Shown: positions 5,996 through 46,011, counted from the first letter of the stretch. The stretch is DNA of 64,000 nt from Archangium sp. (GCA_047600485.1 JASGKS010000001.1:6720259-6784258), one strand, 5' to 3'. The notes: generated from the letters alone by a model not told the origin. Numbers and translations: made by a program.

Positions 5996-6854
5996 GACCT
6001 TCGTCGTGCTGGTAGCGCTCGTGCCACATCAACGCCGCCGGAAATTTCGGCAGCGGCGCGGGAGCCTCTCGCGTCACGAGGCCCAGCGTCACCGCGAGCT
6101 CATCGACCAACGCGCTCGGCGCGTTCATCAACAGGTCCGAGCCGGCGACGAGCATCAGCCCGGCGAGGAAGGTCGGCACTTCGGCGCCAACGCGACGCGT
6201 GAGGCCTTGCTTCTCGAGTGAGCGCGACACCGCGTTGGGGCTCGCGTTGCCGGTGCGGACGACGACGTGACCGAACGAGAGCCACCGCTCGACGGTGAGA
6301 GCACCTTTGAGAATCGGGTGGCCGCGGCGGGCGACGACTCCGAACTTCACGTCGCCCAATGAACGAGAGCGAGTCGACGGCGGCGCAGAGCGCATCGGAG
6401 CGAGCGCGAGCTCAGGCTCTCCCGCGGCGAGCCCTTCACCGAGCGCCGGAGGGAGTGTCACCACCCGCAACGAGATGCCCGGCGCTTCGCGGGTGAGCGC
6501 GCCCACCAACACCGGCAAGAGCGGAGCGAGAAGGTCGGGCATGCCGAGCACGAACGTGCGGTGACTGGTGCGCGGAGAGAACGGCTCGCTCGGCAACACG
6601 ACCTGCTGCAACGCCCTCAGTGCATCCGCCAGCGGCTTCGCCAGGGCCAGCGCCCGCGGAGTCGGCACGAGCTTGCGGCCGTCGGGCACCAGCAGCGGGT
6701 CTCCCAGCTCGGCGCGCAGCTGCCGCAGGCGGTGACTCATCGACGACTGCGAGAGGCCCACCCGCTTCGCCGCGCGCGTGACGTGGCGCTCCTCGAGCAG
6801 CGCGTGGAGCACGTAGAGCGACGCGGGGTCGAAGGCACCGTACGGACTAGTCAT
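5943..6854 (-). CDS. LysR-family transcriptional regulator
   Basis: N-terminal HTH (LYVLHALLEERHVTRAAKRVGLSQSSMSHRLRQLR) plus a LysR substrate-binding domain. Divergent from the epimerase gene. Confidence 0.85.
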   Translation of the reverse strand: MTSPYGAFDPASLYVLHALLEERHVTRAAKRVGLSQSSMSHRLRQLRAELGDPLLVPDGRKLVPTPRALALAKPLADALRALQQVVLPSEPFSPRTSHRTFVLGMPDLLAPLLPVLVGALTREAPGISLRVVTLPPALGEGLAAGEPELALAPMRSAPPSTRSRSLGDVKFGVVARRGHPILKGALTVERWLSFGHVVVRTGNASPNAVSRSLEKQGLTRRVGAEVPTFLAGLMLVAGSDLLMNAPSALVDELAVTLGLVTREAPAPLPKFPAALMWHERYQHDEGHAWLREKVFALVQHRLR

Positions 6855-9523: not shown

Positions 9524-12070
9524 GTGCGTCCTCTGCACGTGCTGCCTCCGATTCCCCACTCCACCGCCAACGCGCATCACCTGCTGTGGCACCCGACCGA
9601 GAAGAAGCTGTGGCTGCTCGACCTGCACGGCAAGCAGCTGTGGCGCGTCGAGAAGGACGGCACCGGTGAGCTGCTCTTTCGCGGAGACGCGCTCGGCCTC
9701 GACTCGCTGAACCTCGCCTACCAACACGCGAGCGGTTTCCATTTCGACGCGGCTCGCAAAGGCGTCGTGTGGTTCGTCGCCACCTACGACCGCGTCTTGC
9801 TCTTCGTGCAGAAGAACAAGAGCTTCGTCGAAGTGAAGCTCGAGAACGGCTTCACGCCCGCGAGCGCAGACGTGTTCGTCTTCGACCCGAAGCGCAACGT
9901 GCTGGTGCACTTCGTCAGCACGCGAGCGATGAGCGTCGACGAGAACGCGGTGCGCGAAGCGCGTGGTGGAACGACGGTGCGTGAGCTCGGCGTCGACGGC
10001 ACGTGGAAGGACGTCGGCACGCCGCTCCCGAGCGCGCGCGGCATGTACACCGTCGGCGGTTGGGACGCGGAGCTCGGCATGAGCGTGCTCGTCGACGACG
10101 CGAAGAACGAGACGTGGGGTTGGAACGGGAAGGAATGGAAGAAGCTCGGGCTCTACCCATTCTCTCCGTGGCAGCCCTTCACTGCCGGCCAGTCGCCGAA
10201 AGGCGGCCTCGTCATCGTGCAGAAGGAACGAGGCCAGAGCGAGACCGCGCAAATCGCGCAGCTCGAGAAGGGAAAGTGGTCGACGCGCGACGCCATCGGG
10301 CTCACCGAGTGGGGCGGGCTCGCGAATGGCTTCATCGCTGGCCCGTGGTTCGGCGCAGGCACGCTGCAGGCCACGCTCGGCACGTACGACGGCAATCGCA
10401 TCTTGCCCACGGGTCGGCCCGTGCCGCAGCTCGAGTTCGGGAGCGTCTCGGGGACTCCGCGTTTCTTCGGCACGCGAAGTCACGTGCGAACCAACGCGCC
10501 GAAAATCGCGCCGCTCAAGTTGTCGACGGAACTCAAGAGCAGCGGCTCGCTCGCCGACGATGCGCTCGCGCACTTCGCCGAGACCGCCGGCGATTTCAGC
10601 GTGAAGGGCGATGGCGAGGTGCTGCTCGACGGCAAGCCGTTCGCGAAAGCGCCGAAGGCCTTCGTCGCGCGCACCGAGACGAACTTCGGCGGCGACGGCG
10701 CGGGGACGCTGATGCTCGTCGGCGGCGAAGTCACCTACGGCAGCAAGCGGCTCACCGACACGTGGCGCGTCACCAACGGCAAGTTCGAGCAACTCGCGGT
10801 GACCGGCAAACCACCGGTCGTCACCAACGCGCTCGTCGGTTTTCACGCTCCGAGCGCGACGTGGGTCGTCTGCGGAGGTCGCGACAAGAACTACCGGCGG
10901 CCCAACACCACCAGCACGCTCGACGGAAAGAAGTGGGCCTCGTTTCCCTCGAAGCTGAGCGACGAGAAGCGGTCGACGCCGGAGACGTACGACACGCACT
11001 CGTTGCTCGCGAGCGACGGGGTGAGCGGTGAGCTGCTGCTCGTGCGCGGCGGGTATTTCGCGAAGAAAATCTACGCGTGGCGCGGCGAAGGAAAGTGGCT
11101 GTTCGTCGCGAGCTGCGAAGACGAAACGCTCACGGGTTTTGCGTGGGACCAGGCGACGCGCTCCATCGTCGCGGGGAGCAGCACCGGCACCACGACGCTA
11201 CAGCTCGGCGCAAAGCTCGATGCGCTCCCGCGACCGAAGGGCAGCAAGCCGCTTGCGCCGAAAATCGCGAAGCAGGTGTGGCTGCAGCGCGACGCGGGCG
11301 ACGCACATCACTTCTGGTTCGCACACCTCGAGGGAACGGGCTGGGTCGAACGCTGGGGTGCGCGCAGCCCAGCGGCGAAGCTGAAGACGAAACGCCACGC
11401 GAAGGCAGAGACGTACGCCGCAGCAGTGCAAGCGCGGCTCGACGCCGGCTTCGAGCACGCGCCCGAGAAGGAGCTCGCCGCGGTCGTCGACGGGCGCACG
11501 TCGTTCCGCCCGAAGTTCGGCAAGAAAGGCGACGACCTCGCTGGCGGAGTCGCTCCCGGCATCACGGCGAAACAGTGGCCTCACTGCGAAGAGTGCAAGA
11601 AACCGATGACGCACCTCCTCACGCTGAACGCACACCCGCAGCGCTTGCCGCTGAAGAAGCACGCCGCGCTCTCGGCCTTCATCTGCAACAACGAAGAGAC
11701 CGCCGGCATTTGCGAAACGTGGGACCCCGACTACGGCTCGAGCGCGGTGCTGCTCTCGAAGAGTACGAAAGGTGGCTTGAAGCGCGCGCCGGGCGACCAA
11801 CTCTCAGCGTTCCGCCTCAGCTACGAAGAAAAGTTCGAGCCCAACCCCGAGCACGCCGACGAAGAGGATGCCGAGGCGGTGCCGAAGGTGAACGGCTACC
11901 CGGGTTGGTTGCAGCAAGACGCGACGCCCAATTGCGGCAAGTGCAAGAAGCCGATGCGGTTCGTCGCGCAGATTGGTGAGTTCGACGACGCGCTCGGGTT
12001 CGCGGGCGGCGATGCGTACATCTTCTGTTGCGAGTCGGAGCACGGCGGCGCGGTGCTCTGGCAGCACTGA
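9524..12070 (+). CDS. Multidomain protein: Kelch/galactose-oxidase-like repeats + WGR domain + C-terminal DUF1963 (YwqG-like) domain with two CxxC pairs
   Basis: 848 aa with good composition (K/E/W/F). Repeated G(T/K)WK..G motifs, a WGR-like HFWFAHLEGTGWVERWGARS, and a C-terminal WPHCEECKKPM ... CGKCKKPM. Confidence 0.7.
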   Translation: MRPLHVLPPIPHSTANAHHLLWHPTEKKLWLLDLHGKQLWRVEKDGTGELLFRGDALGLDSLNLAYQHASGFHFDAARKGVVWFVATYDRVLLFVQKNKSFVEVKLENGFTPASADVFVFDPKRNVLVHFVSTRAMSVDENAVREARGGTTVRELGVDGTWKDVGTPLPSARGMYTVGGWDAELGMSVLVDDAKNETWGWNGKEWKKLGLYPFSPWQPFTAGQSPKGGLVIVQKERGQSETAQIAQLEKGKWSTRDAIGLTEWGGLANGFIAGPWFGAGTLQATLGTYDGNRILPTGRPVPQLEFGSVSGTPRFFGTRSHVRTNAPKIAPLKLSTELKSSGSLADDALAHFAETAGDFSVKGDGEVLLDGKPFAKAPKAFVARTETNFGGDGAGTLMLVGGEVTYGSKRLTDTWRVTNGKFEQLAVTGKPPVVTNALVGFHAPSATWVVCGGRDKNYRRPNTTSTLDGKKWASFPSKLSDEKRSTPETYDTHSLLASDGVSGELLLVRGGYFAKKIYAWRGEGKWLFVASCEDETLTGFAWDQATRSIVAGSSTGTTTLQLGAKLDALPRPKGSKPLAPKIAKQVWLQRDAGDAHHFWFAHLEGTGWVERWGARSPAAKLKTKRHAKAETYAAAVQARLDAGFEHAPEKELAAVVDGRTSFRPKFGKKGDDLAGGVAPGITAKQWPHCEECKKPMTHLLTLNAHPQRLPLKKHAALSAFICNNEETAGICETWDPDYGSSAVLLSKSTKGGLKRAPGDQLSAFRLSYEEKFEPNPEHADEEDAEAVPKVNGYPGWLQQDATPNCGKCKKPMRFVAQIGEFDDALGFAGGDAYIFCCESEHGGAVLWQH

Positions 12071-19439: not shown

Positions 19440-20390
19440 ATGAAGAAGCTCGCGCTCGCTGCCGTGTCCGTCGCCGTGCTGGCCGTCGTGCTCTGGCCTG
19501 CGTCTCTCCCCGCGGTTCAGCCGCACTCCTTCGTGCCCTTGCCGACGGCGACCACGCCGCTCACCGTGTGCTGGGTCGACACGGGAGGCCTCGACGCTCC
19601 CGCGCGCTACGGAGCTGCGGGGTTGCCGACCGCCGATGCATGGCACGTCACCTCAGCGGCGCTGCTGGTGCGCCACCCGAAAGGCGACGTGCTCATCGAC
19701 GCAGGGCTCTCGCCGAACGCCCAGCACGAAGCGAACGAGCTCGGGGCGTGGAAGCGCTTCGTCTTCTCGCAGACTGCGGGGCGCAATCAGCCGCGACGCT
19801 CGCTCACCGAAGCGCTGCGGCAGCTCGGCGTGACGAAGCTCACCGCCGTGATTCTCTCGCACGCGCACCCCGACCACATGGGTGGACTGGTGGCGCTCCG
19901 TGACGCGCCTGTGTGGCTCGCCGCCGAAGAGAAGACGTTCATCGAGAGTGGCAACACGGTGGTGATTCCCGCGCACGCTCGAGCGGTGAGCGGTCGCATG
20001 GCCGCGTTGAACTTCGAGCGCGTGCCATTCGCGAACTCCGATACGCGGGCCGACGTCTTCGGCGACGGCTCGGTGGTGGTGACACCCGCGTTCGGCCACA
20101 CGCCCGGCAGCATCAACACCTTCATCAATGCTCCCGGCGGGCGGCTGGTGCACGTGGGTGACCTCATCAACCTCCGCGAGTCGCTCACGCGCGAAGTGCC
20201 GAAGTCGTTCGCCATGCGAATGCTCACCGACGAAGACGTGCACGCCACGTCGGAGCAGGTCGCGCGTCTGGTCGAGCTGAGCAAGGCCGACCCGAAGCTC
20301 ACCATTCTCCCCGCGCACGACAGGCCCGGGTGGTCGGCGCTCTTCGGTGACGACGGCCTCGCGGGCGCGCCACCGTGTGTCCAGTGGTGA
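19440..20390 (+). CDS. MBL-fold hydrolase, N-acyl-homoserine-lactonase-like, secreted
   Basis: Signal peptide [28 protein letters not shown] zinc motif. Confidence 0.7.
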
Positions 20391-20454
20391 AGCCGGCGCG
20401 CGTAATACTTCCGAGCTATTTCCGGCTCTCGCCCGCGCAGCTACGAATCGACGG

Positions 20455-21435
<981 letters not shown>

Positions 21436-21438
21436 AGT

Positions 21439-22866
21439 TCAGAAGCGATCGTCGGCCGGCCCGACCGTCGTGACCGGCGGAGTGATGAGCACCTGCTGCT
21501 GGCTGCCCGGAGTGACCGGCAACACCAGCGTGAAGCGGCTGCCCTTGTTCATCTCGCTGGCCACGCGCACCACGCCGCCGTGGCCCTCGACGAAGCTCTT
21601 CACGATGGCGAGCCCGAGGCCCGCGCCGCCGTACTCGCGCGTCGACGACGAATCGACCTGGTAGAAGCTGTGGAAGATCTTGTCGAATTGATCAGCCGGA
21701 ATGCCGACCCCGGAGTCCTCGACGAGAATGCGGTAGCCGGGCGCGTTCAGGTCGGGTTGCTGCTGCACCTCGGTCAACGTCACCGACACCTTGCCGCCCT
21801 TGGGCGTGAACTTCACGGCGTTGGTCAGCAGGTTCACGACCACCTGGCGCAGGCGATCTCGATCTCCGGTCACCATCGCCATGCGCGGCGGCACCTTCGC
21901 CTCGAGAATCACGCCCTTCTTCGCGGTCTGCGGCTTGAGCGAGCTCACCGACGAATTGATCAGCTCCACCGCGTCCATCGGCTCGAAGTTGAGACGCACC
22001 TTGCCCGCTTCGATCTGCGAGATGTCGAGAATGCTGCTGATCAACTTCAGCAGGGTCTCGCCCTTCTCCATGATGGTGCGCACGTAGTCGAGCTGCTCAC
22101 CGTTGAGCGCGCCGGCGAGCCCTTCAGCCAGCATCTCCGAGTAGCCGATGATGCTGGTGAGCGGCGTGCGCAGCTCGTGACTCACCGTCGCGAGGAAGGC
22201 GCTCTTCAGGCGATCGAGTTCCTTCAGCTTGGTGTTCGCGTCTTCGAGGCGCTTGTTCCGTTCTTCGAGCTCGCGGTTGCTGTCGAGCGTCGCCTCGATG
22301 TGCAGCTGCGAGGTGAGGAACATCTTCTGGCCGCCGAACAACATCGTCTGCAGCAGCTGCCCGAAGTGCAGCATCACGCGCGCGATGGTGCCTTCCGGAG
22401 CGCGACGCACCTTCTCGACCAGCGCCTTCGCGTTGCCGATGTCGAAGCCTTCCGAAATCTCGGTCAGCGTGCGTGGCGCGAAGTCGCGCAGGTCTTCGGG
22501 GAAGAACGGGCCGAACACCACGCGGCCGAGCGTGTCGCCTTCCCACATGATGGGCACGATGAGGTACCGCAGCCCCGTGAAGCACGGCACGGTCAACATG
22601 CCCTTGCTCGCGGGAATCAGGTCGGGCTCGAGCACCGGCAACCGCGCGCCGTGCGAGAGCGCGAGCGGCCCGTCTTTCACGCGACCGACCGTCGCCGTGC
22701 AGCGCCGCCGCCCCTCGGGGAACGAGAACACGTAGCCGCAGAAGTCGCCGTTGCCGATCTTGATGTCGGCGATCTTCCCGCCCTTGTCGTCGAACACCTT
22801 GATGCCCACCCGGTACAGCTCGACGAAGCCCTTCACCACCTCGGTGAAGGACTCGGTGTCGAGCAT
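21439..22866 (-). CDS. Cytoplasmic sensor histidine kinase (N-terminal PAS-variant/PocR-like sensor, HisKA, HATPase_c)
   Basis: H-box ATVSHELRTPLTSI. N/G boxes LLTNAVKFT, DSGVGIP, GGAGLGLAIV. No TM segments. The true start is MLDTESF at 22866, and the upstream part of the long ORF is out-of-frame artefact. Confidence 0.85.
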   Translation of the reverse strand: MLDTESFTEVVKGFVELYRVGIKVFDDKGGKIADIKIGNGDFCGYVFSFPEGRRRCTATVGRVKDGPLALSHGARLPVLEPDLIPASKGMLTVPCFTGLRYLIVPIMWEGDTLGRVVFGPFFPEDLRDFAPRTLTEISEGFDIGNAKALVEKVRRAPEGTIARVMLHFGQLLQTMLFGGQKMFLTSQLHIEATLDSNRELEERNKRLEDANTKLKELDRLKSAFLATVSHELRTPLTSIIGYSEMLAEGLAGALNGEQLDYVRTIMEKGETLLKLISSILDISQIEAGKVRLNFEPMDAVELINSSVSSLKPQTAKKGVILEAKVPPRMAMVTGDRDRLRQVVVNLLTNAVKFTPKGGKVSVTLTEVQQQPDLNAPGYRILVEDSGVGIPADQFDKIFHSFYQVDSSSTREYGGAGLGLAIVKSFVEGHGGVVRVASEMNKGSRFTLVLPVTPGSQQQVLITPPVTTVGPADDRF

Positions 22867-22910
22867 CTCGGAGAGCGAGATGCGTCGCTGAAGGACGGAC
22901 TCGCCCTGTC

Positions 22911-23615
22911 TCACGGGCGCGCTCCCTGCCGCGGAGGCAGCACCTTCTCGAGCTCGGTGCCGGTGACGTCGATGTTGGCGAAGACCTGGGTGAGGAATTC
23001 CTTCTCGGTGAGGCCGATGGCCTTGCTCAACGACGCGCGCGCTTCGAGCGAGCGGTAGGCGCTCTGCAGCACCGCGAACAACGTCTCGAGCACGCCGACC
23101 CCGCGAATGGCGATGGCGCCGACCACCGGCTCCTTGCCCTTCTTGCGCGTCTCTTCGATCTCCGCGTCGGTCTTGGTGTCGGGGAGATCTCGCTTGTTGT
23201 ACTGAATGACGATCGGCGTCTGCGCGGGGTCGAGGTTGTTCTCCCGCATGTTCTCCTGCAGGTTCTTCCAGTACGCGTTGTTCTCCTGCGCGGCGGAGCG
23301 GCGGCTGTCGGCGATGAAGGCCACCGCGTCGGCGCCCTGCAACACGATGCGGCGCGTGGCGTTGTGAATCACCTGGCCGGGCACGGTGAACAGCTTCACC
23401 TTCACCTTGAAGCCGTTGGCGGTGCTGAAGAAGACGGGGAGCAGGTCGAAGAACAGCGTGCGGTCGTCGTGCGTTTCGACGGTGAGCAGCCGGCCCCTCA
23501 CCTCGGGGCTGGTCCGCTGATGCACCATCTGCAGGTTGGTCGTCTTCCCCGAGAGACCGGGGCCGTAATAGACGATCTTGACGGTGAGCTCGCGCTGCGC
23601 GTGATTCAGTTGCAC
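22911..23615 (-). CDS. MglA-family Ras-like small GTPase (MglA paralog) with about 40-aa C-terminal extension
   Basis: IVYYGPGLSGKTTNL P-loop, TDRTLFFD (Arg-finger position), YTVPGQV (catalytic Gln), IQYNKRD (G4). Closely parallels M. xanthus MglA. Sits 44 nt upstream of the histidine kinase. Confidence 0.85.
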   Translation of the reverse strand: MQLNHAQRELTVKIVYYGPGLSGKTTNLQMVHQRTSPEVRGRLLTVETHDDRTLFFDLLPVFFSTANGFKVKVKLFTVPGQVIHNATRRIVLQGADAVAFIADSRRSAAQENNAYWKNLQENMRENNLDPAQTPIVIQYNKRDLPDTKTDAEIEETRKKGKEPVVGAIAIRGVGVLETLFAVLQSAYRSLEARASLSKAIGLTEKEFLTQVFANIDVTGTELEKVLPPRQGARP

Positions 23616-23724
23616 GTCGGCGGAGTCTGCGTCCGAACGCGCGGCTCACCAAGCACAACCCTCCACAACCCGATCGGTGCGGTCACACCGTATTGCTGAT
23701 GTCCGAGCGCCACTGTGGCCGTTA

Positions 23725-39388: not shown

Positions 39389-41350
39389 CTACTTCGCCTT
39401 CGGCTTCACCATGAAGTAGCCCATCATCTCGAGGTGCAGCGCCGAGCAGAACTCGGTGCAGTACATCGGGAAGACGCCCGGCTTGTCGGCGACGAACTTC
39501 ACGTTCTCGTGCTTGCCGGGCTCGAGCGACAAGTTGATGCCGTACATGTCGATGGTGAAGCCGTGCACCTGGTCCTCGGCCTGCTCGACCGAGGTGATGT
39601 GCAGGTAGACGATGTCGCCCTCTTCGACCTCGATGCGGTCGGGCGTGAAGTGGCTGCGAATGGCAGTCATGTACACGTTGACCACGTTGCCGTTGCGCTC
39701 GATGCGCTCCTTGCCCGGCGTGACGGCGAACTCGTCCTTCTGATCAGTGTAGGGGTTGGTGCCCATCGGGTAGACCTTCATGGGCGCCAACTTGTCCGCC
39801 TTGATCATCTGCGCGTAGTGCGGCTCGCCGATGCCGATGGGCATGTCGGCCAGCAGCTTCATCTTTTGTCCGTCGATGCCGACCAGCTGGAAGTTCTGCG
39901 GGTAGAGCGGACCGATGTTCGCGAAGCGGTCGATGCTCATCTTGTTCATCGCCACTACGTACTTGCCGTCGGGGCTGACCGTGTCGCCCTCCGCCGCGAG
40001 GATGTGGCCGATGTTGTAGTGAACCGGCAACTTCTCGACGACCTTCAGGGTCTTCAGGTCCCACTTCGCGACCACGCTCTCGATGAACACCGAGGTGTAG
40101 GCGAAGCCCTTGTCGTCGTAGACGGTGTGCAGCGGCCCAAGGCCGATCTCCACCTGCCCGCGAATGCTGTCCTTGAACGGGAGGATGTTGAGGCCGTAGC
40201 TGTCCTTGCCCTCGAACGTTCCCGCCTCGATGAGGTTCTTGATCTTCTCGAAGCGATACACGGTGGCGTGCGTGTCGAGCTTGCCGCCGACCACGATGTC
40301 TTCACCGTCGGGAGTGACGTCGACGCCGTGCGGTGACTTCGGCTCTGCGATGAGCGTGAGCACCTTCTCCGGCCCGGTGACCTCGAGCGGCAGCACCTTC
40401 ACGCCCTTGATGGTCTTCGCCTTGCCTTCCTTCACCAGCGCTTCGGCCTTCTTCCAGTTGATGACGTGGAGGAAGTCGGTGTCGTTCTGCGACGCGCCAG
40501 ACTCGACGGGCGGGTTGCCTTCGAGAATTCCGCCCGTAGCCATCTCGGTGTTGAAGCTGTTGATGAAGATGTAGCCGTCAGACGCGCGCTTGCCGGAGTC
40601 GGCGAGGTCCTGCGTGTACGGCGGCAGCTCGACGCCGAACGACTCGCTCTCGACGATGCGGCCCTTCGTGCGGTCGAACTTCCAGAACATCGCCAGGCCG
40701 CGGTACTTCTCCTTGTACTGGCTGACCGGCACGTACTCGCGGCCCAGCGGCGACGGGTACTGGCTGGTCTCGATGACGTAGTCGGTGTTGGGCGTGACGA
40801 AGGCGCCGCCGTGGTCGGACGCGACCAGCGGGTTGGGCACGATCTGCTTCGTCGCGAAGTCCGACAGGTCGACCACCGCCACGCGCGCGTTCGCCTTGTC
40901 GTTCACGAAGAGGAACTTGCCGTCGTAGTCGCCGTTCATCTCGCTCAGGTTCGGGTGGTGCACGTCGGCCCACGCGAGCTTGCCGCCCTTGTATTGCTGG
41001 CCACCCTCGAGCACCTGATCAGACAGACCGCCGTAGCCGTAGCCCTGCCACGGCTCGGGCGTGAACACGCCGAGCACCTTCAACAACCGCATCGAAGGCA
41101 CGCCGATGGTGAGCACCTGACCAGACTGACCACCCGACGCGAAGATGACGTAGTCGTCCTTCTGCCCGCTGGGCTTGTACGTGAGGAGCGCGGCCTCGAC
41201 GTCGGCTTCGCTCAACTTGCGCTGAGCCATGATGTCCTTGAGGCCCGCGCTGGCTTGAGCGACGGGAGCGGAAGACGGCGTGCCCGGCGTCGAGCCCGAA
41301 GAGCAGGCGCTCACGGACAGAACGACGAGGGCGAGGAGAAGACGTTTCAT
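39389..41350 (-). CDS. nosZ: Nitrous-oxide reductase NosZ, clade II (Sec/lipoprotein type)
   Basis: 653 aa. N-terminal MKRLLLALVVLSVSAC with no twin-Arg. Beta-propeller CuZ His region. C-terminal CuA motif CTEFCSALHLEMMGYF. Strong GGAGG RBS. Confidence 0.95.
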   Translation of the reverse strand: MKRLLLALVVLSVSACSSGSTPGTPSSAPVAQASAGLKDIMAQRKLSEADVEAALLTYKPSGQKDDYVIFASGGQSGQVLTIGVPSMRLLKVLGVFTPEPWQGYGYGGLSDQVLEGGQQYKGGKLAWADVHHPNLSEMNGDYDGKFLFVNDKANARVAVVDLSDFATKQIVPNPLVASDHGGAFVTPNTDYVIETSQYPSPLGREYVPVSQYKEKYRGLAMFWKFDRTKGRIVESESFGVELPPYTQDLADSGKRASDGYIFINSFNTEMATGGILEGNPPVESGASQNDTDFLHVINWKKAEALVKEGKAKTIKGVKVLPLEVTGPEKVLTLIAEPKSPHGVDVTPDGEDIVVGGKLDTHATVYRFEKIKNLIEAGTFEGKDSYGLNILPFKDSIRGQVEIGLGPLHTVYDDKGFAYTSVFIESVVAKWDLKTLKVVEKLPVHYNIGHILAAEGDTVSPDGKYVVAMNKMSIDRFANIGPLYPQNFQLVGIDGQKMKLLADMPIGIGEPHYAQMIKADKLAPMKVYPMGTNPYTDQKDEFAVTPGKERIERNGNVVNVYMTAIRSHFTPDRIEVEEGDIVYLHITSVEQAEDQVHGFTIDMYGINLSLEPGKHENVKFVADKPGVFPMYCTEFCSALHLEMMGYFMVKPKAK

Positions 41351-41391
41351 GTGAACCTCCGGGAGTTGCGAGTCGTGACGGCGCGCTGAAG

Positions 41392-41407
41392 TGCGAGCGA
41401 TGTGCCA
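41392..41407 (-). promoter_or_regulatory. Candidate sigma-54 (-24/-12) promoter upstream of nosZ
   Basis: The minus strand reads TGGCAC-ATCGC-TCGCA. The GG/GC spacing is exact and there is one mismatch to the TTGCA -12 element. The -12 element lies about 40 nt upstream of the nosZ ATG. Confidence 0.45.
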
Positions 41408-41515
41408 GCGCTGATCAGGAGCGCGGAGCGAGCGCAGCGCGTCGATTCGCTGCAGCGCGTGCGCGCGAGCCCGAATTCACGCAACCAGTGCGCACCGGCA
41501 TGTTCCGCCGCCGGT

Positions 41516-42495
41516 TCACTTTGAAACCGCCTCGTATTGCTTGAGCTTGCGCCACAGCGTGGTGCGCCCGATGCCGAGCACGCGCGCGGCGTCGACCAGC
41601 TGACCTCCGCAGGCGTCGAGCACGCGCAACACGTGCCGCTTCTCCGCCTCGTAGAGCGAGAGGAGCGGGTCGTTCACCGTCAGCGCCGGCTGCAGCACCA
41701 CCTCGGGCAGATGCGCCGGCTCGATGGCCTGGCCACGCGCGAGCTGTGCGGCGCTGCGCACGGCGTTGTGAAGCTCGCGCACGTTGCCCGGCCACGAATA
41801 GGCGCGCAGCGCACCGAGCGATGCCGGCACGAAGCCGGCGTGGTTGCCCTGCTGCTCGAGGAACATCTCGGCGAGCGAGAGCACGTCGTCACCGCGCGCG
41901 CGCAGCGGCGGCACTTCGAGCGTGAACACGCTGAGCCGATAGAAGAGGTCTTCGCGAAACCGCCCGTCGCGCACGAGTCGTTGCAGGTCGTGCACGGTCG
42001 AGCACACCAGCCGTACGTCGACGTGCACGGGTGCGCCGCCGCTCGGGTGAACTTCACGGTCTTCGACGACGCGGAGCAGCGGCCCTGCACCACGAGCGGG
42101 AGGTCTGCCACCTCGTCGAGAAAGAGCGTTCCCCCGTGCGCCACTTCGAATGCGCCGTGGCGCAACACCGCGCCGAAGAGCTCGAGCGACAGCGCGTCGA
42201 CTTCGCCCGCGGCGCAGTTGAGCACCACGAACGGCCGGTCGCGCCGCGGACTGTTCACGTGGAGCGTGCGCGCGAGCACCTCTTTCCCGACGCCGGGCTC
42301 TCCACGCAGGAGCAGCGGCTCGGGAGCACCCGCGAGCGCCTCGAGGCGCGAGAGAATGGTCTGCATCGTCTCGCTCTGCGCGACGAGTCGGCGGCAGGTG
42401 CGCGGGCCGGCGTGCTGCTCGGCCGCGGCGCTGCAAATCCTGCACAGCGTGCCTCGCTCGACCGGGCTGCTGCACGTGAAGGGTCCCAGAGCCAT
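41516..42495 (-). pseudogene. Sigma-54-dependent activator with Cys-rich N-terminus, interrupted by a -1 frameshift (or sequencing error)
   Basis: The N-terminal part (GEPGVGKE...GGTLFLDEVADLPLVVQGR) and the C-terminal part (LLRVVEDRE...VDVRLVCST...GNVRELHN...HTH) are each contiguous but lie in two frames. The junction at about 42079-42083 is consistent with one missing C. Confidence 0.7.
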
Positions 42496-42561
42496 GCGCA
42501 GATGCGGTGCATGGACGGTACCGGCGCGACGCTGGCGTGCCCGATGCACCGCAGGCTGCGC

Positions 42562-43221
42562 ATGAAGATCTACCTCTCGCGCTTCTACGCCTTCCTCGCG
42601 CAGCCGCTCCGGCCGGTCTCGCGCGTCGTGCTCGCGACGCTGGCCGTGCCGCTGGCGCTGGCGTTCTTCCAGCCGCTGTGGCGCATCTCGATGGAAGCGC
42701 CGCAGTACCCCGCGGGGCTGTACCTCGACATCTACGCGCACACCGTCGAGGGCGGGAACGGCGGCCAGCACCTTCAGGAAATCAACACGCTCAATCACTA
42801 CATCGGCATGCGCACGCTCGATCGCGCGGCGATGACCGACCTCGACTGGATTCCGTTTGCGCTCGGCGCGCTGCTCATCTTCGCGCTGCGCGTGGCCGCC
42901 ATCGGCAACGTGAGCTCGCTGGTCGATCTCGCGGTCGCCACCTTCTATGTGAGCGCCTTCGCGTTCGGCCGCTTCGTCTACACGCTGTGGGTGTTCGGTC
43001 ATCACCTGAAGCCCGATGCGCCCGTGAAGGTGCCGGGGTTCATGCCCGCGGTGCTGGGCAGCAAGCAGATCGCCAACTTCACGACGCACAGCGGGCCACG
43101 CGAGGGCTCGTTCCTCCTCGGCGTCTTCGTGTTGGGCGTGCTCGGCGTACTCCTCTTTCACCTCGTCGCAGGGCGGCGTGAGGCCGTGCGGCAGGCGGCG
43201 CTCGCTGGCGCGGCGGCTTGA
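42562..43221 (+). CDS. Hypothetical integral membrane protein (4 TM)
   Basis: Divergent from the sigma-54 activator. Hydrophobic helices. First gene of the plus-strand operon. Confidence 0.5.
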   Translation: MKIYLSRFYAFLAQPLRPVSRVVLATLAVPLALAFFQPLWRISMEAPQYPAGLYLDIYAHTVEGGNGGQHLQEINTLNHYIGMRTLDRAAMTDLDWIPFALGALLIFALRVAAIGNVSSLVDLAVATFYVSAFAFGRFVYTLWVFGHHLKPDAPVKVPGFMPAVLGSKQIANFTTHSGPREGSFLLGVFVLGVLGVLLFHLVAGRREAVRQAALAGAAA

Positions 43222-43224
43222 CCC

Positions 43225-44499
43225 ATGACGACGCTCACGCAACGCCACCTGCGTCTGGGCGTGGTCGCGACGCCCGCACGTCAGGCCGCGCCATGGACAC
43301 CGTTCGTCGTCGCGTCGCTCGTCTTCACCGTGCTCGTCGGAGCGCTCACCGGCGCGCTCGACTTGTGGACGTTGCGCGTCCTCCAGACTGCGGTGCCCGA
43401 GGCGCATCGGCAGGCGCACGCGCTCGGTCAGCTGTTCGGCTTCCTGTGGCTGCTGACGCTCGGCGTCTCGCTGCACCTCGCTCCGAAGTTCTTCGCGCAC
43501 CCCGAGCCACGCCCTGAGCTGGTGCGCGCGCTCGCGTGGTTCGGCATCGGCGGCGTGGTGCTGCTCGTCATCGGCCGCTTCGGCCGGCTGGTTCCGCACT
43601 CCGCTTCACTCGGCGCCGTCGGTGCGTTCGCGCTGCTGGTGACGATGACCGCGTGGCTCCACTGGCTCTCGCAGGCGTGGAGACAGGGCGTCGCGCCGAA
43701 GGAGCCGCTCCACGCCTTCATCACCGCGGGCGCCGCGTGGTGGTGGCTCGCTTCGCTCGGCGTCATGGCGTGGACGTGGTGGCCCGCGAAGGTGCCGCTC
43801 GAGGCCGTGTGGCGCATCGCGCTCTTCGGCGGCGTCGCGTCGTGGCTGTGGGGCGTCTTCTTCCGCGCAGGAATCTGCACCTTGCGCGTGCAGCGACCGA
43901 CGCTCCGCTCGCAGTGGGTGCTCTTCGGCATGTGGCAGCTCGCGAGCGCCTCGAGCGTGCTCGCCGTGGTCTTCGACGCGCGCGCGCTGCAATTCACCGC
44001 CGGCCTCAGCATGGCCGCGGCGTGCGCGCTGTTGTGGCGCAACGTGCGGCCCTTCTCGGGTGACGGCGTCGCGGCGCTCGGGGCGCTCCAGCCGCGCGCG
44101 GTGCAGGCCGGCCTGGTCTTCGTCGCGCTCTTCGGCGCACTGCAGGCGTGGGTGGCGCTGCGCGCGCTCGAGGTGTGGAGCCCTGCGTTGCTCGACGATG
44201 CCGCTCGGCACGCGTTCACGCTCGGCGCGGCGACTCTGCTCGCGTTCGGCTTCGCCGGGCGCATGGTGCCCGGCTTCCTCGGAACCTCTCTGCGTTGGCC
44301 GCGCGTCTACGACGTCGGCGTGGTGCTCGTGGCGTGCGGCGCCGCCGGTCGATTCGCCGAGCTGTCGGCCCTGCCCGTGATGCAGCGCCTCGCGGGGGGC
44401 TCCGGTGCGCTCGCGGCCCTCGGCGTCACGGCCCTCACCGCCTCGCTGCTGCGCTCGATTCGCGCAGGACGCGCTCTGCAGCAGGAGCGCGCGTCATGA
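43225..44499 (+). CDS. Polytopic membrane protein, NnrS-like (NO-response heme-copper membrane protein family)
   Basis: 424 aa, about 12 TM helices, Trp/His-rich. The NnrS assignment rests on size, topology and denitrification context. Confidence 0.45.
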   Translation: MTTLTQRHLRLGVVATPARQAAPWTPFVVASLVFTVLVGALTGALDLWTLRVLQTAVPEAHRQAHALGQLFGFLWLLTLGVSLHLAPKFFAHPEPRPELVRALAWFGIGGVVLLVIGRFGRLVPHSASLGAVGAFALLVTMTAWLHWLSQAWRQGVAPKEPLHAFITAGAAWWWLASLGVMAWTWWPAKVPLEAVWRIALFGGVASWLWGVFFRAGICTLRVQRPTLRSQWVLFGMWQLASASSVLAVVFDARALQFTAGLSMAAACALLWRNVRPFSGDGVAALGALQPRAVQAGLVFVALFGALQAWVALRALEVWSPALLDDAARHAFTLGAATLLAFGFAGRMVPGFLGTSLRWPRVYDVGVVLVACGAAGRFAELSALPVMQRLAGGSGALAALGVTALTASLLRSIRAGRALQQERAS

Positions 44500-45392
44500 G
44501 CGTCAGAAAAGTAAGTCTTTGCTTACTTCTATTGGCGGCTCCTGCGGCACAAGGCGCGGCCTGCTGCCTGTCGGTCTCGGTGGTCGGGGCCGGCCGGCTC
44601 ACCGCGTGGGAAGCGGGAGCAGCGGGCGTCTCGTCTTCTTTCGCGCACAGCACCGGGCGCTGGAACGGCGCCAGCACCTGGCGAGCCTTCGACGGCGGCC
44701 TGCTGGAAGACGAGCTGCGCTTCGAAGCGTGGGGCATCGTGCGGCTCGCCGACGCGTGGCAGCTCTCGGCGCGCGTGCCGTGGGTCGTCGGTTTCCGCTC
44801 GGCGGGTGACGTGAACTCGGTCGGCACGGGCCCGGGTGACGTCAGCGCCGCGATTCGCTGGGAAGCGGTGCCGCTCGGAGCGTGGCTGCACGTACCGGGC
44901 ATCGCGTTCACCGCCGGCGTCACGGGTCCGACGGGCCGACGGCCGGAGCAGGCCACCGACACGCTCGGAGCGAGCATCACCGGGCGCGGCGCGTTCGGCG
45001 GAAGTCTTGGCGTGACGGTCGAGGAGACGTGGAACCCGTGGTTCGTGCGCGGAGACGGTGGAGCGACGGTGTTCGCTCCGTTCACGCGGCAGGACCTCGG
45101 CGCGTCGCAGTGGCTCGGCCCCAACCTGCAGGTCGCGCTCTCGGGTGGCCGCGAGTTGTTCGAGAAGCTGGTGCTCGCGCTCTCGGTGCGCGTCGACCAC
45201 GACTTCCCGTACGCGCTCGACGGTCGCGTCATCGCGGGTTCCGCGGCGACCACGCTCTCGGCTTCGGCCTCAGCCGCATGGAAGGTGACCAACCACTGGA
45301 CCGTCACGGCCGCCGTCACCGGCGACGCGCTGGGCGTCAACCGCGAGGCGCGTCTCGCCGCCACCCTCGGAGTTCGTCATGGCTTCTTCTGA
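44496..45392 (+). CDS. Outer-membrane beta-barrel-like protein
   Basis: Signal peptide, alternating amphipathic strands, C-terminal ...HGFF. ATGA overlap with the upstream gene. Confidence 0.45.
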   Translation: MSVRKVSLCLLLLAAPAAQGAACCLSVSVVGAGRLTAWEAGAAGVSSSFAHSTGRWNGASTWRAFDGGLLEDELRFEAWGIVRLADAWQLSARVPWVVGFRSAGDVNSVGTGPGDVSAAIRWEAVPLGAWLHVPGIAFTAGVTGPTGRRPEQATDTLGASITGRGAFGGSLGVTVEETWNPWFVRGDGGATVFAPFTRQDLGASQWLGPNLQVALSGGRELFEKLVLALSVRVDHDFPYALDGRVIAGSAATTLSASASAAWKVTNHWTVTAAVTGDALGVNREARLAATLGVRHGFF

Positions 45393-46011
45393 GCTGCGCC
45401 GCGCCATCGCTGTCGCCGTGCTGGTGTTCGCGGGCTGCGCGACGTCGAGCTCGTCGCGCGGGTTGCAGCACGCGACGCTGACCTCGACCACGCGCGCGCG
45501 CACCACCGCGCAAGAACTCGTCGCCGCGTCCGACGGCACGGTGTTCGTCTTCTGGTCGGGCGGCTGCCCGTGCGTGCGCCGCTACCAGGCGCGCATCGAA
45601 GCGCTCGCGGCCGAGTGGAGCGTTCGCGGCATCGCGTTCGTGCAGGTCTCGAGCAACGCGGGAGAGAGCATCGACTCGCTCGCCGACGTGGCGCGAAACC
45701 GCGGGCTGAAGCTGCCGCTGTGGCGCGACGACGAAGGCGCGCTGGCCGAAGCGCTCGACGCGCGCACCACACCGACCGTGGTGTTCGTCGCGCGTGATGG
45801 CCGCGTGCTCTACCGCGGGTGGATCGACAACGAGCGCGCGCCCGGAGAAGACGGTCGCGAGGCGTGGCTCGAAGACGCGCTCGTAGGCTTCACCGCGGGC
45901 AGGCCGTTCGCCAGCCGCACGCCGACCTGGGGCTGCACCATCACCCGCTCACTCGCGCGCTCGTCGGCGCCGCTGTGTCACGTCGTCACCGAAGAAGGAG
46001 TCACGCCATGA
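45379..46011 (+). CDS. Thioredoxin-fold lipoprotein (TlpA/Sco-like thiol-disulfide oxidoreductase)
   Basis: Lipobox FAGC. FVFWSGGCPCV redox motif. Confidence 0.6.
   Translation: MASSELRRAIAVAVLVFAGCATSSSSRGLQHATLTSTTRARTTAQELVAASDGTVFVFWSGGCPCVRRYQARIEALAAEWSVRGIAFVQVSSNAGESIDSLADVARNRGLKLPLWRDDEGALAEALDARTTPTVVFVARDGRVLYRGWIDNERAPGEDGREAWLEDALVGFTAGRPFASRTPTWGCTITRSLARSSAPLCHVVTEEGVTP

Follow-up and report, generated by a model that had tools for sequence, protein, structure and literature searches.

Clade II nosZ enzymes carry out much of the consumption of nitrous oxide (N2O) in soil and wastewater, and their regulation is poorly understood. To our knowledge, only Crp/Fnr-type regulators have been proposed for clade II nosZ outside Campylobacterota. 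Among described regulators, the closest to the protein family treated here is NorR of Escherichia coli and Ralstonia eutropha, whose regulons are norAB and norVW; both combine a sensor, an AAA+ domain and a Fis-type helix-turn-helix (HTH). Here we analyze a gene at 41516..42495 (minus strand) in a 64,000-nucleotide stretch of an Archangium sp. genome (GCA_047600485.1, JASGKS010000001.1:6720259-6784258), called the window below. The gene, split by one nucleotide, encodes an enhancer-binding protein (EBP) homologue with an N-terminal module of four cysteines (Cys4), and lies directly upstream of a clade II nosZ gene that has a sigma-54-type promoter.

The sensor of NorR is a GAF domain with mononuclear non-heme iron, whereas that of the Cys4 family is a module of ~35 amino acids (aa). 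The gene neighborhood of the family is likewise NorR-like, with qnorB, hemerythrin-type and nosZ genes that bear -24/-12 elements; this holds for the family, not for the window's own clade, which, unlike NorR, also lacks the GAFTGA motif. GAFTGA is essential for contact with sigma-54, and homologues without it (TyrR, DhaR, HupR, VpsR) are sigma-70-dependent (PMC3162934). These four, together with Rhodobacter NtrC and Brucella NtrX, resemble the window protein in having a PF00158 core in which the sigma-54 loop is deleted or degenerate and the nucleotide-binding motifs are kept. Proteins of the TyrR class act at sigma-70 promoters, whereas the window regulator adjoins a perfectly conserved sigma-54-type promoter and has a different sensor module.

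Two further systems bear on the comparison. Cysteine-ligated iron-sulfur (Fe-S) redox sensing that gates an EBP has a precedent in OrpR of Desulfovibrio vulgaris, whose PAS sensor carries a [4Fe-4S] cluster (PMC8359166). The OrpR cluster is held by a full PAS domain with three conserved cysteines, whereas the Cys4 module is a minimal four-cysteine peptide with a putative cofactor and no recognizable fold. VnfA and AnfA have cysteine motifs too. PexR of Myxococcus xanthus, a metal-sensor EBP, binds dyad repeats and works both as a repressor (with sigma-A) and as an activator (with sigma-54) (PMC12754779), showing that dual repressor/activator roles exist among EBPs of Myxococcota. It differs from the window protein in its Zn/Fe-binding GAF domain, its intact sigma-54 activation and its targets, ahpC and katB.

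A split regulator gene and its missing GAFTGA loop

The regulator gene runs on the minus strand from an ATG at 42495 to a stop at 41516-41518, and its 980 nucleotides (nt) are no multiple of 3. An N-terminal frame, MALGPFTCSSPVERGTLCRICSAAAEQHAGPRTCRRLVAQSE...GGTLFLDEVADLPLVVQGR (MALGPFTC...LPLVVQGR), is continued one base offset by a C-terminal frame, LLRVVEDREVHPSGG...GIGRTTLWRKLKQYEAVSK (LLRVVEDREVH...QYEAVSK). Inserting one base at the break gives a repaired protein of 326 aa, which matches PF00158, AAA_lid_14 and HTH_8; positions 2-167/168 of PF00158 are covered unbroken across the junction (E 4.7e-44). In a DNA alignment with the closest syntenic locus, L001 (86% nt identity), the sole frame-breaking gap is 1 nt long (CAGGGCC-GCTGCTC versus CAGGGCCGGTTGCTC); the same alignment has a 24-nt in-frame indel near the gene start. 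The lost base is the third position of the Arg139 codon (CG_ before CTG CTC) and falls between plus-strand coordinates 42079 and 42080 (frameshift site 42079..42080, minus strand). The four closest relatives read through the junction intact as LPLAVQGRLLRVVEDREVHPSGG: P0001 (90% identity), P0002 (66%), P0003 (65%, from an Archangium MAG, metagenome-assembled genome) and P0004 (64%).

The regulator is thus one gene, split by a 1-nt loss, as a preliminary description of this DNA had proposed; the junction that it gave, LPLVVQGR / LLRVVEDRE near 42080, proves exact. That description had also called for a comparison with orthologous loci, and there the regulator is a single intact frame with the same synteny in four lineages, the two-frame organization being found in none. 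Judged from the sequence as it stands, the window gene could yield only the native N-terminal 139 aa followed by out-of-frame residues. Programmed frameshifting was considered and rejected, since CAG GGC CGC TGC contains no slippery heptamer and the orthologues cross the site in a single frame.

The N-terminal module, C8-x9-C18-x2-C21-x12-C34 (42394..42474, minus strand), takes the place of a receiver or GAF domain, and its last cysteine stands 3 residues ahead of the LVAxS start of the AAA+ domain. A module of this kind had been noted earlier, with a spacing of x13 before the last cysteine where the actual spacing is x12; its presence instead of a receiver or GAF domain is conserved in the orthologues and in the wider family. 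A Pfam search of the repaired protein found no GAF domain, and five N-terminal modules (N-terminal 45 aa) matched no Pfam family at E<=10. What points to binding of a metal or an Fe-S cluster by the module is the invariance of the four cysteines.

The remainder of the protein keeps the residues expected of the ATPase. In the alignment with relatives, the predicted Walker A motif (GEPGVGKE, 42280..42303, minus strand; columns G65 to E72), the Walker B Asp-Glu in GGTLFLDE (D127 and E128; 42112..42117, minus strand), the arginine finger (R181/R187) and sensor II (R240, in WPGNVRE) are all invariant. Likewise invariant are the residues of the Fis-type HTH (HTH_8), which occupies residues 283-321 of the repaired protein and lies in the C-terminal frame (41534..41650, minus strand). 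An AlphaFold model of the orthologue P0002 has a predicted local distance difference test score (pLDDT) of 90.5, with 53-74 in the Cys4 region, values that argue neither for nor against a metal site. Its AAA+ core superposes on the solved EBPs NtrC1, PspF and FlrC with template-modeling (TM) scores of 0.85-0.9, and the best full-length structural matches are Brucella NtrX and ZraR, VpsR also being among the best.

In contrast to these conserved elements, the GAFTGA/L1 loop is gone. At its site (FGAVLRHGAFE, 42145..42177, minus strand) the window reads ELFGAVLRHGAFE (ELFG-AVLRH-GAFEVAHGGTLFLDE), where the next relatives (50-56% identity) read ELFGHAKGAFTGAQAARKGLFE. A 9-residue gap falls exactly at GAFTGA in the window protein, P0001, P0003 and P0004, and a 6-residue gap in P0002; the 9-residue gap recurs against the solved sigma-54 activators ZraR (1OJL) and NtrC (4L4U). 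GAFTGA is absent from five of the 120 best matches, and four of the five are the window's clade. What is left of L1 varies in length and sequence (AVLRH, APMQR, APQPGVER), and the L2-loop region is changed too, with HPSGG in place of RRVGE. We rejected GAFEVA as a divergent GAFTGA, since in the alignment it coincides with the conserved strand after L1 (G-x-FE-x-A-x-GGTLFLDE), which all relatives and the solved structures share.

On this sequence evidence, the role of a classical sigma-54 activator can be ruled out for the window protein and for its four closest orthologues, and this holds whether or not the frameshift is genuine. The earlier notion of a complete AAA+ enhancer-binding protein therefore fails in the functional sense, the loop being deleted in the window and in four intact orthologues alike. 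With a PF00158 core from which GAFTGA is deleted, the regulator shares the core feature of the sigma-54-independent EBP homologues as defined in PMC3162934.

A metagenome scan with a back-translated signature of the shortened L1 retrieved one contig only (L094, from JGI), which carries an unrelated receiver-domain EBP. This NtrC-type gene (L094 1096-2460, minus strand) is itself frameshifted within the GAFTGA region, with ELFGYEKGNRAG... and ...GRFELADGGTLFLDE read in different frames; it was retrieved solely because the shift looks like a shortened L1.

The frameshift itself is ordinary, be it a pseudogene or a consensus error in a MAG, and matters for annotation only. Between the window regulator and L001 the ratio of nonsynonymous to synonymous substitution rates (dN/dS) is 0.16 overall, with 0.157 in the N-terminal and 0.152 in the C-terminal half. 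Since dN/dS is equal on both sides of the break and there is no detectable decay downstream, the lesion is either very recent or a consensus error, and we hold a very recent null allele and a long-read consensus error to be about equally probable. If the assembly or its consensus is at fault, which we would put at an even chance, the organism carries an intact regulator that is a normal member of its clade. The Archangium MAG is a single contig of 9,422,076 bp, which implies a long-read assembly, and a lone 1-nt lesion in the GC-rich context GGCCG, flanked by equally low dN/dS and set against four intact orthologous lineages, is what such an error would leave. The lost base, however, lies in a run of two and not in a long homopolymer: the 'CC run' of the preliminary description amounts to two bases, CC or GG according to which base was lost. 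Nor is the assembly visibly error-ridden, as a scan of codon-position GC content over all 64 kb (~58 genes) revealed no other convincing frame switch within a gene; the other open reading frames that it flagged are antisense shadows of real genes. A further point against an error is that 16 plausible products of the split gene have no exact match in the public protein collection. The accession MFT3712051.1 is numbered between nosZ (MFT3712050) and QM817_30795 (MFT3712052), and none of the 16 candidate products matches anything. An exact look-up of nosZ found no contig from a second assembly of the same strain.

The intact orthologues have an annotation problem of their own. P0001, P0003 and P0004 are called as 283 aa from an internal methionine, M44 (L001 470-1321; L002 10001-10852; L006 5793-6644), and in every case the Cys4 module is encoded in frame upstream of the called start, with its own ATG. 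The public start-codon calls are systematically wrong in these orthologues; they drop the Cys4 module from the records, and the sensor module is hidden by annotation.

The nosZ promoter and possible roles of the regulator

The presumed target of the regulator is a clade II, Sec-dependent nosZ (39389..41350, minus strand; NCBI MFT3712050.1), which matches TIGR04246 with 838 bits against a cut-off of 625 and is followed by a cytochrome c gene and then nosD, as in a clade II nos cluster. About 50 nt 5' of its ATG stands the sigma-54-type -24/-12 element TGGCACATCGCTCGCA (41392..41407, minus strand); TGGCAC-N5-TYGCW matches nowhere else in the 64 kb, where 0.17 matches would be expected. The 16-mer is identical and in the same place in six of six syntenic loci (L001 to L006), and in the intergenic alignment, which averages 74% identity per column, no other invariant block is as long. 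The sigma-54-type nosZ promoter named in the preliminary description is thus real as a conserved sequence element. A metagenome scan for CTGA-N7/8 followed by the 16-mer found nothing.

Upstream of the promoter lie two dyads of the form (C)GCA-N5-TGC(G). The first, CGCACTGGTTGCG (41480..41492, minus strand), is a candidate upstream activating sequence ~85 bp upstream of the -24 element, and its GCA-N5-TGC is kept in five loci. The second, CGCACGCGCTGCA (41451..41463, minus strand), is a candidate enhancer site ~55 bp upstream of -24. Similar sequences, ACGCAG-N4/5-TGCG, are found upstream of nosZ in L007 and L090.

The syntenic loci, at aa identities of 90% (L001) and 64-66% (L002, L003-5 and L006), share the order regulator, clade II nosZ, cytochrome c gene, nosD; nosF, nosL and nosY come next in L002, the sole locus long enough to show them.

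Such a layout would suit a classical sigma-54 enhancer-binding activator dedicated to nosZ, the role first proposed for this gene. The PF00158 match (E 5e-44) with HTH_8, the position directly upstream of nosZ, the invariant -24/-12 element with dyads at enhancer-like distances, and a GAFTGA-bearing relative that holds the same position in L090 all speak for it. Because neither the window protein nor any intact close orthologue retains the GAFTGA/L1 loop, we nevertheless consider this role distinctly improbable, even if the frameshift is an error. The altered L2-loop region (HPSGG for RRVGE) argues the same way, as does the finding that GAFTGA is essential and that homologues without it are sigma-54-independent (PMC3162934). 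A non-canonical sigma-54 contact made by the L1-less clade is a further alternative.

Loss of GAFTGA with the ATP-binding motifs kept is the hallmark of regulators of the TyrR/HupR/DhaR/VpsR/NtrX kind, which work at sigma-70-type promoters. A regulator of this kind would activate or repress nosZ, or the divergent membrane-protein/redoxin operon, by way of the housekeeping polymerase; another EBP would then serve the -24/-12 element, or the element would be vestigial. The structural matches fit, with VpsR and Brucella NtrX among the best, and NtrX of Brucella, so far as is known, lacks GAFTGA; the regulator is, moreover, divergent from a conserved operon, with a spacer of only 67 bp. Yet a promoter scan, weak for high-GC organisms, found no sigma-70-like promoter in 41300-42700 (nor, by the same scan, any terminator) and left the sigma-54-type element as the one recognizable promoter, the conserved dyads are on the nosZ side and not in the divergent spacer, and the perfect conservation of the -24/-12 16-mer argues that it is used. 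We regard control of the sigma-70 type as unlikely.

The whole L1-less clade might also be a decaying relic, of which the window frameshift is the next step. Between the same loci the regulator is far more diverged than nosZ, and the L1 remnant varies in the way described above. On the other hand, dN/dS stays below 1 across lineages (0.16-0.45, at synonymous divergence, dS, of 0.6-0.9), four other lineages have intact frames, and the Cys4, Walker A/B, arginine-finger and HTH residues are invariant. Within the L1-less clade dN/dS is 0.2-0.45, indicating that the orthologues are functional genes, though faster-evolving than nosZ; decay of the clade is very improbable in our view. For the same locus pairs (window versus L002, L003 and L006), dS is 0.6-0.9 for the regulator and 0.24-0.38 for the adjacent nosZ, about a twofold difference, which could stem from strong codon bias in nosZ or from its recombination or transfer.

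The activator of the conserved nosZ promoter in the L1-less clade is a puzzle, small but real for the sigma-54 field: a clade without L1 beside an invariant sigma-54 promoter. The window holds a second EBP (20347-21435, plus strand) with an intact GSFTGA, WPGNVREL and a C-terminal HTH, and with neither a recognizable sensor domain nor a Cys4 module. In principle it could supply the sigma-54 contact at nosZ; nothing links the two. A large histidine-kinase gene (21439-23658, minus strand) adjoins it on the opposite strand.

The Cys4 family and a proposed mechanism

The wider family was sampled as the best 120 matches, from which members of 320-370 aa were picked by their N-terminal cysteine pattern and then aligned. 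The four-cysteine pattern occurs in 96 of the 120, in proteins of ~340 aa from Myxococcota, Acidobacteriota, Planctomycetota and others, with the consensus C-x2-PFE-x-G-x2-LC-x2-CR-x(10-12)-C-x-RLV. All four cysteines are present in 96/96 aligned members, a count that is circular since members were picked by it; P16, G20 and L22 are also conserved in at least 90%. When contigs were scanned with the repaired protein, the generic WPGNV pattern saturated the search: the 80 matches obtained were ordinary EBPs of at most 45% identity, with neither Cys4 nor nosZ among them.

Seven members that bear GAFTGA or nearly so were viewed in their contigs. P0008 (L090) lies directly upstream of nosZ, in the layout of the window. 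P0035 (L091) is divergent from nosZ and is followed by a hemerythrin gene, P0083 (L092) is divergent from nosZDFYL with qnorB ~4.5 kb off, and P0112 (L093) is divergent from qnorB. P0005 (L007) has a hemerythrin-like gene next to it and nosZ 5 kb away, and P0099 of Acidobacteria (L089) stands between nar/ACIII genes and a DUF2249-hemerythrin gene. The seventh, P0016 (L088), is taken up below. GG-N10-GC elements are found 28-74 nt before the ATG of the family-linked nosZ, qnorB and hemerythrin genes, as in TGGCACCCGGGTTGCG (qnorB, L093), TGGCACGACTGATGCT (nosZ, L091) and TGGCACGCGGCGTGCG (hemerythrin, L089). This recurrent neighborhood across the family makes a role related to nitric oxide (NO), N2O or redox state plausible, as the preliminary description had supposed.

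P0099 (L089 10001-11053, MAG GCA_020850715.1) has a degenerate L1, GARAGA instead of GAFTGA, and TGGCACGCGGCGTGCG stands 60 nt before the ATG of its hemerythrin/DUF2249 neighbor. Contact with sigma-54 may here have been lost a second time, independently, within the Cys4 family.

Text searches of the literature found no paper on sigma-54 or EBP control of clade II nosZ, nor on a NorR-type regulator linked to qNor in Myxococcota; the searches were not aimed at the Cys4 module itself. A family of Cys4 EBPs associated with nosZ, qnorB and hemerythrin genes is apparently undescribed. Together with the -24/-12 promoters of these genes, it offers a testable handle on the switch for N2O reduction in Myxococcota and Acidobacteriota.

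The account that we slightly favor over its negation joins these observations. The window gene is a split member of a Cys4 EBP family; the ancestral form of the family would be NorR-like, its L1-less clade would have become a modulator, and the frameshift would be recent or an error. In the ancestral family, a metal or Fe-S center held by the four cysteines would sense NO, O2 or redox state, and the sensed signal would gate the ATPase and so activate the sigma-54 promoters of N-oxide reductase genes. The nosZ-linked L1-less clade would have lost its own remodeling of sigma-54. Since the clade has lost the sigma-54 loop but conserves the promoter, the dyads and the residues that bind DNA and nucleotides, a signal-dependent modulator is the simplest reading: the L1-less protein would most probably still occupy the upstream dyads, modulating the promoter rather than firing it. 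It could do so by repression or anti-activation, or in partnership with an L1-bearing EBP, providing the sensing and the DNA binding.

Several observations weigh against this account. No direct precedent was found for an L1-less EBP that represses or modulates a sigma-54 promoter, and no L1-bearing partner was identified, the other EBP of the window lying 20 kb away without a Cys4 module. The Cys4 module is of low confidence in the structural model and has no known domain match. The dyad pattern CGCA-N5-TGCR shows no enrichment across the window (21 occurrences against 18.6 expected), which leaves conservation and position to speak for it. The regulator evolves much faster than nosZ (64-66% versus 93-94% aa identity), which could mean weakening constraint, and P0016 has no N-oxide gene within the available DNA of its contig.

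A more far-reaching version is possible, and we put it forward tentatively, as something we doubt more than we believe. In it the Cys4 peptide (~35 aa) would be a new minimal sensor of NO, O2 or redox state, based on an Fe-S or metal-thiolate center, in NorR-analogous sigma-54 activators for clade II nosZ, qNor and hemerythrin genes of Myxococcota, Acidobacteriota and Planctomycetota, and the nosZ-linked clade of the Archangium type would be a naturally L1-less derivative, serving as an anti-activator or contributing sensing and DNA binding to a mixed ring. If true, such anti-activator or mixed-ring control of a sigma-54 promoter would be a mode not yet described.

The nosZ leaders of the GAFTGA-bearing loci share a conserved inverted repeat after the -12 element, G(C/T)GCGAC(A/C)GATTGCCGCAC, found at L007 ~6520-6545, L090 ~11395-11420 and L091 ~9880-9905. 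It could be a hairpin of the 5' untranslated region or an operator. The window's clade lacks it and conserves GTCACG instead. In L090, the spacer between regulator and nosZ (~11050-11190) contains tandem CGCGGGGT repeats broken by a stretch of Ns, either masked sequence or a gap in the assembly.

The divergent gene set

On the side of the regulator opposite nosZ, all loci have a divergent gene for a membrane protein of 219-236 aa. In the window this is QM817_30795 (42511..43221, plus strand), which opens a conserved divergent set; a 424-aa membrane protein and a redoxin are also encoded there. Further out, in L002 and L006, whose contigs reach far enough to show it, the set comprises a ~423-aa membrane protein, a ~293-aa protein, a redoxin and a YtkA-domain protein. 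The two membrane proteins and the ~293-aa protein have no Pfam or NCBIfam match where scanned or recorded. The set spans 42511-46011 (plus strand) in the window, 6093-9794 in L002, 1754-5633 in L006 and 7568-9913 in L090, and its products are possibly accessories for NosZ maturation or copper handling.

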